From contig OZ024763.1 of NCBI GenBank assembly GCA_964016885.1, positions 24,428,001-24,492,000 on the forward strand: 64,000 bases of DNA, given 5' to 3'. The notes under the pieces were generated by a model, which was not told the DNA's origin, did no database searches, and saw only the letters and a list, made by a program, of their open reading frames with translations. Made by a program: the position numbers and the translations under genes. Shown one piece after another: positions 19,472-24,742 of the stretch. The stretch is from Eledone cirrhosa. Its lineage: Eukaryota. The number at the start of each line of letters is the position of its first letter. Positions within the stretch are counted from its first letter, which is position 1.

Positions 19472-21307
19472 ATGGCGGAAAAGATGGCAGACATGTCTGC
19501 CATTAGCTCTGCCACGCCCCCCAAGTCTGAAGAACAAAAAATAATTACAACAAAATTAGACATTGAAACAAACAAACAAAATGAAAAAACAAATGTTAAG
19601 GAAAATGAGCAAACAGAAAACAAACAAACAGAAAATAATACAAATAACGACAGGGCAACTTTCGCCCAGAAAACAAAGCAATCCATTACATACACACCAA
19701 TTGACCTAACTGCCGCCAGAGAAAAACTGGCCGAAGCAAAGAAACATATTGTTTTGGGGGAAAACGGAATGTTTTCCATTAACTCCCCCCCAGAATTCAA
19801 GAAAGCCAGAGCAGAAAACACAGTTATATACAGAACTATACTAAACCAGTCAAGAAAGCCAGCACAGCCCAGCCAAATGGAAATAGAGTTAGTCCTAAAA
19901 GACTATATGAAGAATATTCTCTTCATACGAAAGGACCGACTCTATGGCAGCATTTCGGTCCTAACAAGAGACAAAGAAACGGCGGTTCAGCTTTCCCTAA
20001 GCCCACTCTCGTCGACAACATATAGCTTCTATCCCTCCTACATGGGTAGAAGAACACAGAGGGTAAAAGTAAAAACAATGCTGCCCACAATGGACTTCTG
20101 GTGGGCTATTGCTGGCTTCATTGATATGGGCGAAGACACTATGCTGTCAATGGGGAAGGCAACTGGAGATGCGTTCCTGGGAATGGGCCTCGACATACTA
20201 GTCCAAATGAGGCCCGAAAGAATAGCACAAATCCCGGATCGCATCTGGCTGGATGACCTTACCCCAATAGACATAATTGTAGAGGGGAGAAGACCAGCAT
20301 GCTATTTATGCATGGAAAGGGGACACGTTAAGGCTAACTGCCCGAAACGTATCCCCCAAAAAGGACTATTGCCCACACCCACCACAAACAGTACACCAGC
20401 ACCACCCACCTCCAAAAATACACTAATACCACACACAGCAAACAAAATACAGACACCACCAACCACAAACACAACACAAACATCACCACCACCAGCACCA
20501 AACACAAGCACGACACAAAAATCACCACCACCAACCACAACACAAACATCACCACCACCATTACCAACCACAAGCACGACACAAACATTACCACCACCAC
20601 CACCACAAAACCCATTCCAAACAAATAATAAAAAAAACAGTAACAAATCTACCCCTCCCGCAAAAAAAAAACAACCACACAACACGTCCCTCCCACCTAG
20701 CGCTGAAGAGTTTCCCCCAACTTCTGAAGAAGAAGGAGGAGAAGCCTTCAGACAAGTTAAAAGAAAAAAAAGAAAACACACACCCAGCACACCACAAATA
20801 ACCCACACACAAACACCAACTCCAATCAAAAACACCCCACCCTCAACAAACAAAAATAAATCTGCGCCTCCCCTCTCCGAAACATTGACAGCATCACAAA
20901 AAAAGACGTTGCAATACACATATATAAATAAAGAAAACAAAAAACTGGTTAAATTAATAAACAATAACCCTATGGTGCAGACCGAAGGGCCAAACTTTAT
21001 CTCAACAGAGAACTTCACCCATTTAAAAATGATAAAGGTCCCTCTGGACCTTTATCGTTCCTTAAAAGAACAATTTAGACGGGACGTGAGCCCCCCCTGT
21101 TTAAAACCGTTGAATCGCGTCCTCTTGAAAGATTTCCCCATAACCGCCCCTCTCCCTGACACAACTCCAAATACCCCAACCCCACCACACACGTGTACCC
21201 CCACACCACCACAAAACATCCCTCCACCCAACACACCTGATGCCATGGAAATTACGCAACCCGGAGAGGTAAGTGCTTTTCTTTCTTCACTTTCAACACC
21301 AAAATAG
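19472..21307 (+). CDS. Retrotransposon ORF1 (gag-like nucleic-acid-binding protein, 611 aa from first ATG)
   Basis: Open frame. Zinc knuckle CYLCMERGHVKANC (CX2CX4HX4C), Pro/Thr-rich linker, basic KRKKRK patch. First ATG at 19472 in GCATGG context. Confidence 0.9.
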   Translation: MAEKMADMSAISSATPPKSEEQKIITTKLDIETNKQNEKTNVKENEQTENKQTENNTNNDRATFAQKTKQSITYTPIDLTAAREKLAEAKKHIVLGENGMFSINSPPEFKKARAENTVIYRTILNQSRKPAQPSQMEIELVLKDYMKNILFIRKDRLYGSISVLTRDKETAVQLSLSPLSSTTYSFYPSYMGRRTQRVKVKTMLPTMDFWWAIAGFIDMGEDTMLSMGKATGDAFLGMGLDILVQMRPERIAQIPDRIWLDDLTPIDIIVEGRRPACYLCMERGHVKANCPKRIPQKGLLPTPTTNSTPAPPTSKNTLIPHTANKIQTPPTTNTTQTSPPPAPNTSTTQKSPPPTTTQTSPPPLPTTSTTQTLPPPPPQNPFQTNNKKNSNKSTPPAKKKQPHNTSLPPSAEEFPPTSEEEGGEAFRQVKRKKRKHTPSTPQITHTQTPTPIKNTPPSTNKNKSAPPLSETLTASQKKTLQYTYINKENKKLVKLINNNPMVQTEGPNFISTENFTHLKMIKVPLDLYRSLKEQFRRDVSPPCLKPLNRVLLKDFPITAPLPDTTPNTPTPPHTCTPTPPQNIPPPNTPDAMEITQPGEVSAFLSSLSTPK

Positions 21308-24300
21308 ATCAATTGAGAGTTGGCTGTTTGAACGCGCGTGGCCTGAGCTCAGCTTGGAAGCAAGCAAAGCTTCTAAGTGACCTCAGGTCACAAAGTATAG
21401 ATGTGATGGTTGTTTGCGAGAGTCGGATCAGCAGCGTGAGACAGCTGGCGCCCGCCTTCGATGACTTTGAGATGCACGCATCTCTCTGTCAACCCGGAGG
21501 CGGGGGGGGGAGTTGCCGTACTGCTGGATAAACGTCTGACTCTCGACGTACAGATTGTTCACTCGGACCCGGGGGGTCGATTACTGGTGCTGGACGTCGG
21601 AGGTGGTGAAGGCGGGGCTTTCAGACTGGTCGGTCTTTATGCTCCCTTCGGGGCGGAGAGAGCCGACTTCTTCCAACGTCTGGAGACTTTTCTAGGAACG
21701 TCGCGTTCCCTGCTTTTAGTGGGGGACTGGAATGGAATCCTAGATGCGCGTTGGGACTATGCAGGGGCATGTCCCGATAGAGGGGGGTGTAGCAGCCTCA
21801 AGGGGTTACTCGATCGATTCGACCTGGTCGATAGATTTCGACTAGATTGTCCAACTGCGCCAACCTGGACCTGGGCAAACCGCAGTGGACAATCTAGATC
21901 GTACCTAGATAGGTTTTTGGTTAGGAGTAAGGATAGGGACGTATTTAGTTGTCCAGAACTGATCATGGTTGGCTATTCAGATCACAAATTAGTGACCTGC
22001 GTGGTCAACCTTGATAGAACGCATAGACAGGGTCCCGGTTACTGGAAGATGAACTTGTCCTTACCGACAAAGAAAGATTACAGAAACCGGATTAGTAGCT
22101 TAGTTAAGATGCGGTTGACGGGAGCGATCGTCAACAGTAGGTGGTGGATATCTCTAAAGAGAGAAATTAGAGTAAGTTCGATAGGTTACAGTAAGGAACT
22201 AGCGGCGAATAGAAATAGGAGGGAAAGGGAGTTAACAGATAAACTAGAAGAGGCGATTAGGAGCGGAGACGTAGCCAGAGTGTTAGCGACGAGAACGGCA
22301 TTGAGCCAGTTCTTTGACGCGAAGCACGAAGGCTGCGTTGTCCGAAGTAAAATACGTGCTTTAGGAAACGAGGGGACCAAAGCTGTTAGCTGGGCCCGCG
22401 TGACAGAAGCCAAGAGTGGGATTAAATCCACCATTCGGTCTTTGCGAGACCAGGATGGACGGGTGATCCTTGAACCTGAGCGAATGTGCGAGACCTTTCA
22501 AAGGCACTTTGCTCGACTGTTCGGAGGTGGCGGGGGGCCGGACGGGGATGTGGACTTCGGTCCATACTTCGACGGTCTACCGCGTCTTTCGAGCGGCGAA
22601 GCGGAGTGCTGCGAAGGGCCAATCACAGCCACTGAAATCGGGGAAGCGCTCAGCCAATGCAGCAGACGCAAATCCCCGGGTCTCGATGGTCTACCATACG
22701 AACTTTATTTAGCTATGCCGGTCTTGTTCTCCGAACTCCTCGAGGCTGTCTATTGCAACTGGCAACAGAACGGGAGAATTCCCTGTTCTGTGACCAAGGG
22801 CGTGGTCACGCTAGTGAGGAAGGACGAGAGCAAGGGGGACGACTTAAGTAACTTTAGGCCCATAACTCTGCTGAATGCAGAGTTACAGATTTTGGCCAAG
22901 GTGTTGGCGAAGAGGTTGGCGCTTGTGGTGGGTGGTTTGATGGGAGACGCGCAGACATGCGCTATCCCGTCCAGGTCCATTCACGACAACCTCCACCTCA
23001 TGCGATACATCATAGAGAGGGTTGGCTACGAACCCGGCTTTGGTGGGGCCCTGATCAACTTGGATCATTCTAAGGCGTTCGATAGGGTCGACCATGGTTA
23101 CCTGGATGCGGTGCTAGCGGCGGCGGGCTTCGGACCCGTTTTCAGGGGCTGGATTTCTGCCATGCACAGTGGCAACATCTACTCTAGGATTAAAGTAAAC
23201 GGCTACCTCTCGGAGCCGTTTCAAATCACCCGATCCATCAGACAGGGGTGCCCCCTCTCCTCCCTTCTGTACGTATTGACTCTCGAGCCACTGCTGCGGA
23301 AGTTGGAGTTGCTGCGGGGCATACCCCTGGAACCGGGATTGCACAAAGCGGTCTCGGCCTATGCCGACGACGTAACAGTAATGGTGGCGAACGCCTCGGA
23401 AATCGGGGCGATCGCCACCCTACTGGAGGAATACGAAAGGCTGACGGGGGCTAAGCTGAACCAGGACAAGTCAGTCGGTTTGCAACTCGGAACGTGGAGG
23501 GGCAAACCGATGCCGTTAGACGGTGTCGTCGGGCGGTGGACGGAGGGCCCGGTGAAGCTGCTCGGGGTCTGGTTCGGACCGGACCTCCAGGTGGAGAAGA
23601 ATTGGGGCGAGGTGACGAGCAGGGTGTTTGCGCTGACCCAGAAGTGGGCCAAGTGCAAACTATCACTGAAAGGTCGGGCGGAGGTGACGAACGCTTACAT
23701 AGCGTCCGTCATCTACTACCGCCTGACCGTCGTGCCTTGCCTCAAGGAAAAGCTCACCATCATGGAACGCATGCTCTTCCAGTTCCTCTGGAAGAAGCGG
23801 CCTCCCATGGTGAGGAGATCCATCTGCTGCCAGCACCCTTCGAAAGGAGGGCTGGGTATGCCGTGGCTGTTGATGCGTAGGCACGCATTGAGGCTACGGC
23901 ATCTACAGGTATTCCTCAACGGTCAGCCGGTGTGGGCCCCGTTTGTGAGGCGAGCCTTCCCACAGCTCGTCTCGCTCACCGAACTGCAATCCTGGGTGAA
24001 GCAAAGACCGAGAAAACTGGGCAACTGGCACACTGAGTGTGCCCAGGCGCTCACGGCTATCTGGCAAGCGGACCCGACTGTCAGTGGAGAATCCACCTCG
24101 ACATTCTATAGAGGGTTGGTGGCTAGCAGGGGCGACGACACCCTTGGAGAGTCGCTAGGCATGGAGGAGGACGAACTGGCCAGCCTGTTCGGTAGAACTT
24201 TCGGCCCGGGACCCATGGACAACTTCCAGAGGTCCCTAGCCTGGCAGTGTTACCGGGGGGCTCTGCCCGTTCGAGAAAAGCTCTACAGACACGGGCGCCC

Positions 24301-24742
24301 GGGCAGGGATCCCGCGAAAAAGATCTGTCCCAGATGCGTGCGCGACGAGGAAACCGTTGCGCATGCACTGGTACACTGCCCGGGCGTTGCCGATCTGTGG
24401 GGCTACGTCGAACGACTGCTGTCGCGTGTGGCGCCGATTCGATTAACCGCCGAGTCTGTGGTGAACATCAAGCCGCCTCCTCCCTTCAGAAATGAAGCAG
24501 AGGCGGTCTTTCTGTGCGTAATAGCCATGATGAAAGAGGTTGTGTGGTGGACGCGCCTGAAAGGTCTGAGGTCGGGTGACTTTCTCTCCGGCCATCACCT
24601 GGTTTACTTCTTCCGATACCACTTCGGAAGAAGAATCAGGATGGAGAGAGAAGTGCTTGGTCCCAGACAGTTTTATGAAAGGTGGGTGAAAGAAGCGAGA
24701 ATGGCCCGTGTAAATGGGCCTTCTCTCTACATTGTTCTGTAG
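21304..24742 (+). CDS. Retrotransposon ORF2 (APE endonuclease-reverse transcriptase-zinc finger), one +1 frameshift in the G9 run at 21502-21510
   Basis: EN motifs LNARGL, E, YAP, GDWN, SYLDRF, SDH. RT motifs KSPGLDG, FRPITLLN, KAFDRVDH, RQGCPLS, YADD. C-terminal CPRC..ETVAHALVHC. The N-terminus (ORF 21313-21531) joins ORF 21461-24742 if one G is removed. Confidence 0.93.

Follow-up and report, generated by a model that had tools for sequence, protein, structure and literature searches.

In long interspersed elements (LINEs), the ratio of the proteins of open reading frames 1 and 2 (ORF1p and ORF2p) is thought to be determined when a single bicistronic RNA is translated, and L1 RNA splicing is regarded as damaging to the element. 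Among human L1s, the spliced copies known as SpIREs account for 131 of 6,609 full-length elements (∼2%) (PMC5860796). In the Arabidopsis Ty1/copia element EVD, a conserved splice donor serves both splicing and protection of the RNA by U1 (PMC5580714), and the Tx1 group of LINEs includes elements that target microsatellites, namely, Kibi, Koshi, and crocodilian Tx1 (PMC4494074). Here, we analyzed a stretch of 64,000 nucleotides (nt) from Eledone cirrhosa (the window: assembly GCA_964016885.1, contig OZ024763.1, positions 24,428,001 to 24,492,000 of the forward strand). The window carries three copies of one non-LTR retrotransposon (LTR, long terminal repeat), two full-length copies of family A and one 5′-truncated copy of family B1, and all features described below lie on its forward strand. 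An original prediction had proposed that the entire ORF2 of this element is a spliceosomal intron whose removal yields an ORF1-only mRNA. The observation behind that proposal was confirmed and its interpretation partly supported. Regulated splicing from a donor at the end of ORF1 (D2) to the end of ORF2, with the unspliced RNA acting as both the source of ORF2p and the template, would account for an ORF1-only mRNA; it is plausible though unproven, and we regard the case for it as evenly balanced.

As predicted, all three copies end ORF1 with the donor GAG|GTAAGT, the GT lying at 21269, 25404, and 46353; GAGAGGTAAGTGC occurs once in each copy and nowhere else in the window. The identity is 99.2% between copies 1 and 3 and 82.6% between these two and copy 2. 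Copy 1 (19269 to 24975, with the 5′ boundary approximate) is a full-length family-A element bounded by (TATC)n runs. Its ORF1 (19472 to 21307; 611 amino acids) has one CCHC knuckle and a C-terminal half of long, low-complexity Pro/Thr sequence. D2 (21266 to 21274) is followed by a pyrimidine-rich spacer (21275 to 21303) and ORF2 (21304 to 24742), which encodes an apurinic/apyrimidinic endonuclease (APE), a reverse transcriptase (RT), and a zf-RVT domain; spacer and ORF2 together constitute a putative intron of 3474 nt (21269 to 24742). Copy 2 (25015 to 29135) retains an intact ORF2 at 25432 to 28869, and its D2 (25401 to 25409) is in phase 2, such that TAA at 25405 to 25407 is the ORF1 stop codon. 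The motif is indeed read in different ORF1 frames, with phase 0 in copy 1 (613 open codons upstream) and phase 2 in a full-length B-type copy (592 open codons). Copy 3 (44355 to 50062) is full length and of family A, with D2 at 46353 and a candidate acceptor at 49829; its ORF1 and ORF2 are both frameshifted.

The genome searched for further copies comprises 3.0 Gb and contains 426 exact copies of the family-A D2. A pattern requiring the donor gave 2,199 matches and placed the donor before the ORF2 start in several families; because such a search is biased, elements were picked instead by an RT motif or by protein search. Six of 20 fetched stretches were dropped, as they centered on a distant LINE (24 to 28% identity). 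An intact donor lies 24 to 44 nt upstream of ORF2 in 23 of the 26 copies that were chosen regardless of the donor and had a recoverable ORF2 start; the other three are two old copies with G-to-A at +1 and one with a deletion. Ranked by approximate metazoan weight matrices, D2 is first among 266 GT sites in copy 1 and among 223 in copy 2, above what chance would give. It is also the best GT among 223 to 368 in 14 of 16 representatives (with one tie and one mutated copy), although 11 of these 16 are window copies or came from the donor-containing pattern. By comparison, 2 of 39 L1/Tx1-like outgroup loci (those with a scored ORF2 start among 80 metagenome loci) have a rank-1 donor before ORF2, and a wider interval was scored for these.

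The nucleotide-level constraint proposed for the donor extends over approximately 17 families and three ORF1 reading frames and is not general in outgroup L1/Tx1 elements. The donor is in phase 0 in families A and C2, in phase 1 in C, K, C2b, and J, and in phase 2 in the remaining families (hereafter, phase-2 families), and it stays while the length of the spacer varies between families. Between the deepest families, ∼50 to 55% of four-fold sites are identical, where random expectation is 27%; of 142 columns of this kind, 35 are near-invariant. Given this divergence, mere inheritance is unlikely to explain eight near-invariant donor positions. Judged by its conservation and its U2-type 5′ splice-site sequence, D2 is a real donor and is under selection. 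A rank-1 donor, GAG|GTAAGA, is likewise found 38 nt before ORF2 in one distant element from a metagenome (28% identity), whose ORF2 stop is TAA.

At the other end of ORF2, the predicted acceptor-like ends at 24742, 28869, and 49829 were found, as were the purine-rich starts that follow them. The copy 1 site spans 24716 to 24742 and ends at the ORF2 stop TAG. In copy 2, the acceptor cluster (28845 to 28869) includes a CAG with its end at 28862, which is in frame with the final two ORF2 codons, as well as the stop TAG, which ends at 28869. The family-A acceptor has 676 exact genomic copies. By the matrices described above, copy 1 has it in first place among 266 AG sites and copy 2 in 22nd place among 267, such that the acceptor exceeds chance only in part. 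Among the 18 families with TAG, the AG of the stop is first or second of 16 to 34 local AGs in 11. Viewed as a pyrimidine tract plus YAG, the 3′ splice site is strong in family A and moderate in most others. Family X82 retains CAG|G although its stop codon has moved. The F lineage has a strong pyrimidine-CAG site ∼160 nt inside the 3′ untranslated region (UTR), a single event. A splice that would instead yield an ORF2-only RNA by joining into the spacer was rejected, as a spacer AG occurs in few families only.

Whether donor and acceptor fit together was assessed from reading frames by joining the donor to the first AG after a pyrimidine run and counting codons to the next stop. A stop in the donor frame follows within four codons in 16 of 17 families, versus 10 of 34 for the other frames and 12% for random 3′-UTR starts. 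In copy 1, the putative terminal exon (24743 to 24975) has its donor-frame TGA at 24752 to 24754, followed by AATAAA at 24961, and it contains predicted hairpins. Where no extra AG makes the acceptor ambiguous (8 families), the stop comes within three codons in 7. In many phase-2 families, an AG 7 nt before the end links ORF1 in frame to the final two ORF2 codons. Loss of this AG was considered as a mark of families outside phase 2 and was ruled out by family A2. Phase and stop also correspond within related families: all six phase-1 C2b copies with a 3′ end stop immediately in phase 1, and in all eight phase-0 C2 copies two codons precede the stop in that phase. The phase of B4 was assigned by homology. 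B2, which has a mutated stop, and families B7, D2, C3, and X82, which lack a paired donor, lie outside the 17-family count. One stretch consists of two joined elements, and its 3′ end was excluded from the test; 6 of 20 stretches in a later fetched batch lacked a 3′ end. Taken as a whole, the frame evidence for a donor-acceptor pairing is suggestive.

Under the mechanism that we propose, part of the RNA polymerase II transcripts would undergo a splice that joins the donor closing ORF1 to the first AG usable as an acceptor at the ORF2 end. The product would be an mRNA of ∼2.2 kb that encodes a near-unchanged ORF1p and neither endonuclease nor RT. A splice junction located at a stop codon would escape nonsense-mediated decay. 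Unspliced RNA would encode ORF2p and be copied in cis, and the intron would thereby be passed on. We infer that the benefit may lie in a surplus of ORF1p made from an mRNA with a short 3′ UTR or in switching off RT in some cells; U1 bound to the unspliced donor may additionally shield the long RNA, as it does in plant copia elements. The F lineage would have to use a different AG as its acceptor.

A number of results weigh against the removal of ORF2 by splicing. Constraint on the acceptor does not match that on the donor: the original prediction proposed aligning related families to check conservation of both, and only the donor is conserved across the clade. The acceptor ranks first only in family A and from 2 to 56 of about 260 in other families; in J it reads TAG|T, and the abundant F lineage has lost it through a change of TAG to TAA. 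Synonymous conservation at the end of ORF2 is over the average but ranks 56th of 377 windows, which is not significant. The claim that splicing would leave ORF1p nearly unchanged stood with the first AG after the pyrimidine run and, with the stop TAG as the sole acceptor, held in only 9 of 16 TAG families. The first-AG rule was itself chosen post hoc, and permutation over six lineages gave p = 0.055. Family E is the exception among the eight families with an unambiguous acceptor, with a tail of 8 to 55 codons, and the F lineage passes only via a poor GAG site. Predictions written beforehand fared unevenly. For C2, the phase-1 stop was expected to be lost in all copies and is lost in 5 of 8. 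Three further families showed none in a contradicting frame, yet the phase guessed for A2 (phase 0) was wrong, the actual phase being 2. The early stop of family A thus predates its phase shift, and an argument from three joint changes in that family falls.

The search for precisely spliced genomic copies, proposed as a check on the intron, also speaks against it. In family A, no spliced copy was found genome-wide versus the 426 donors and 676 acceptors, nor did one turn up in B (with either acceptor), D, C/K, C2, or, with the acceptor in the UTR, F; the search covered these families and not E, G, H, J, or A2. Copies with the intron exactly removed, of the kind that defines SpIREs and HAL1, were therefore absent from every family searched. 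The matches that the search did return (11 in B, single ones, and 7 in C/K) are point mutants, small indels, or chance. Because cis preference predicts few spliced copies, their absence is a moderate objection; it would be stronger if the element recognizes its hairpin-rich 3′ UTR, since spliced RNA would retain this region.

A second donor-like hexamer, absent from the original prediction, bears on the same question. In about 11 of the 14 families with a visible 5′ end (counted by eye), a GT[AG]AG[TC]-type site (D1) lies 25 to 65 nt from that end; in the window, it occupies 19332 to 19337 in copy 1 (GTAAGT) and lies at 44418 in copy 3. D1 is followed by T-rich sequence and mostly lacks G at −1. 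No acceptor is conserved before ORF1. A branch-point-like CTAAC, a pyrimidine run, and a CAG directly before the ORF1 ATG (19374 to 19470 in copy 1) are clear in family A and are not conserved across the clade; a conserved 5′-UTR intron was rejected, as the families share no acceptor. Family A thus pairs D1 with a textbook acceptor, yet no genomic copy spliced at D1 was found (full-length family-A copies were uncounted). RNA spliced at D1 in this family would still encode both proteins, and the lack of such copies indicates that the elements retain one or more U1-type sites at which splicing is rare in the germ line. D1 favors a role other than splicing for such sites. Several families also have an AGACGT-type word near the 5′ end, reminiscent of the downstream promoter element of Drosophila LINEs.

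Such a role would be that of a landing site for the U1 small nuclear ribonucleoprotein: D1 and D2 would boost transcription and block premature cleavage at AATAAA in the A-rich 5′ UTR and ORF1, yielding full-length RNA independently of splicing, and TAG|G would be an inherited stop after Pro-Ser-Leu codons. We consider this somewhat unlikely as the explanation of D2, though it is a strong rival. It accommodates the recurrence of D1 without a conserved acceptor, the lack of family-A copies spliced at D1 even though that splice is compatible with cis preference, and a conservation of the donor that far exceeds that of the acceptor. Of 16 representatives, 15 have AATAAA upstream of D2, though this may only reflect Asn-Lys codons; the spacer is the sole internal stretch free of ORF2 coding constraint, and U1 has such a role in the copia element EVD (PMC5580714). 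Left unexplained are the early stop in the donor's own phase, which persists through phase changes, the AG|G kept in X82, and the new UTR acceptor in F. Protection by U1 and splicing that removes ORF2 are compatible and can coexist, as they do in EVD.

D2 might also be a true donor that is joined to family-specific acceptors, whether in ORF2, in the 3′ UTR, or in downstream host exons, or it might serve a host route to destroy the RNA of the element. Most families have higher-scoring AGs inside ORF2, F has a UTR acceptor only, and human L1 retains functional donors that harm it when used (PMC5860796). Against this, when families A, D, and C/K were searched for almost all possible joins downstream of D2, the matches were point mutants only (these patterns, also applied to D1 in family A, miss joins that keep the tested base), and selection on the element would not conserve a site that favors the host; we regard this explanation as improbable. 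An account without U1 is very improbable in our view. It would treat the motif as an Arg codon plus a stop codon plus GT, kept for termination and reinitiation on ORF2 or plainly inherited. In the phase-2 families, the ORF1 stop codon indeed coincides with donor bases +2 to +4, a feature that the original prediction had not mentioned and that also counts against a pure splicing constraint: the variants GTAAGT, GTAGGT, and GTGAGT correspond to G, then TAA, TAG, or TGA, then GT. The families also share ancestry and are not saturated. However, the motif is intact in six families whose ORF1 stop lies elsewhere (A, C, K, C2, C2b, and J), positions −2, −1, +1, +5, and +6 are conserved while the ORF1 C terminus and the spacer are not, and the distance to the ORF2 ATG ranges from 24 to 44 nt.

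Should splicing from D2 to the end of ORF2 be the correct reading, it may hold throughout a cephalopod L1/Tx1-type clade of at least 17 families in one genome, in which the RT gene would be an optional intron. The donor and co-adapted acceptors would then give retrovirus-like genomic and subgenomic RNAs, the weaker 5′-UTR donor may add a noncoding isoform, and host splicing would set LINE activity by tissue. We hold this wider proposal tentatively, at slightly less than even confidence.

The identity of the element was established from its ORF2. Pfam Exo_endo_phos and RVT_1 score over the cutoff and zf-RVT slightly under it, and the best solved match is human L1 ORF2p (E = 2e-48); APE endonuclease, RT, and a C-terminal zinc-binding domain are the composition of an L1-clade non-LTR retrotransposon, to which we assign it on this basis. 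The nearest named relative among 52 matches is an Argonauta hians protein (62% identity), and weak matches are labeled Transposon TX1 or come from Xenopus. ORF1, with its CCHC motif, had no Pfam match, and a homologue search for ORF1p was empty; Atlas matches to zf-CCHC/ZCCHC3-like clusters (0.90 to 0.92) are leads only. Full-length copies sit in (TATC)n/(TGTC)n or (ATT)n, depending on the family (judged by eye), the preference for repeat targets expected of the Tx1 group. The element thus appears to be of L1/Tx1 type and to insert into microsatellites. A degenerate RT motif has 18,374 genome-wide matches, part of which come from a more distant LINE; the family is large and recently active.

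Several further observations concern individual families. Family A is young, with at least 426 copies extending into ORF1, and shows scant 5′ truncation (426 donor versus 676 acceptor matches 3.47 kb downstream); its copies frequently stand head to tail in tandem. Its ORF2 has no ATG, a feature that the original prediction had not noted: ATA overlaps the ORF1 TAG at 21304 to 21307 and 46388 to 46391, and all 30 fetched copies were chosen for identity here. Non-AUG reinitiation on ORF2 is likely in this family. Copies 1 and 3 have an ORF2 frameshift in a G-run (21502 to 21510 in copy 1), likewise absent from the original prediction; the length of this early-ORF2 run varies from 8 to 16 bases in family A, and 21 of the 30 fetched copies are in frame, which may reflect RT slippage or assembly error. 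The flanks of family D are a longer AT-rich repeat and not a microsatellite, suggesting a target shift or a self-made tail. A palindromic repeat of ∼1.7 kb has arms of ∼800 nt, each with the 3′ end of a LINE of this clade (family X82), around a common core of 130 to 140 nt; its copies are 94 to 97% identical across many loci and hence were dispersed as a unit, and no full-length parent was found.

In the full-text literature searched, whose scope did not extend to most subscription journals, Repbase, or the supplements of octopus papers, there was no report of a LINE with an intron spanning ORF2. The available text of PMC13282606 mentions Tx1 once and contains no word beginning with "splic," and that of PMC9115989 contains neither. 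If true, a conserved splice that removes ORF2 would mean that a LINE has converged with copia elements on a subgenomic-RNA strategy. It would also open a way to ORF1-only elements and place RT under a splicing switch, in a lineage whose brain expression of LINEs is being studied. If U1 protection is instead the explanation, the clade would still be a clear case of LINEs retaining U1 sites to finish transcription.

ORF1-only HeT-A of Drosophila has been proposed to derive from spliced TAHRE RNA. HeT-A and TAHRE are telomeric elements of the Jockey group, however, and the TART introns described in PMC1636488 lie in antisense RNA. Closer to the element described here are Kibi, Koshi, and crocodilian Tx1, with which it shares the two-ORF layout, the three domains (APE endonuclease, RT, and zinc-binding), and insertion into simple repeats (PMC4494074). 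It differs from them in its targets, which are (TATC)n or (ATT)n and a different repeat in family D, and the available text of that report describes no splice architecture for Tx1 LINEs. Like human L1, it is an L1-clade element with a long-conserved 5′-UTR donor that mostly escapes splicing. Human SpIRE splices lie within the 5′ UTR or extend into ORF1, are harmful, and leave copies (PMC5860796), whereas the present element has its main donor at the ORF1 stop and the families searched hold no spliced copy. The half-L1 HAL1 resembles the proposed RNA in being an ORF1-only product of an L1-clade element; HAL1 is a genomic nonautonomous family (PMC5753468), unlike the present case, in which the families searched include no ORF2-less genomic copy. 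EVD is an LTR element with one ORF and a short intron tied to premature polyadenylation, and its stop is created by splicing (PMC5580714); the element in E. cirrhosa is a LINE with a normal 3′ end and a putative 3.4-kb intron holding the entire ORF2. The two are alike in having a U1-type donor that follows the structural gene and is stronger than the acceptor, in the proposed surplus of structural protein, and in the dual role that U1 has in EVD (PMC5580714) and may have here.

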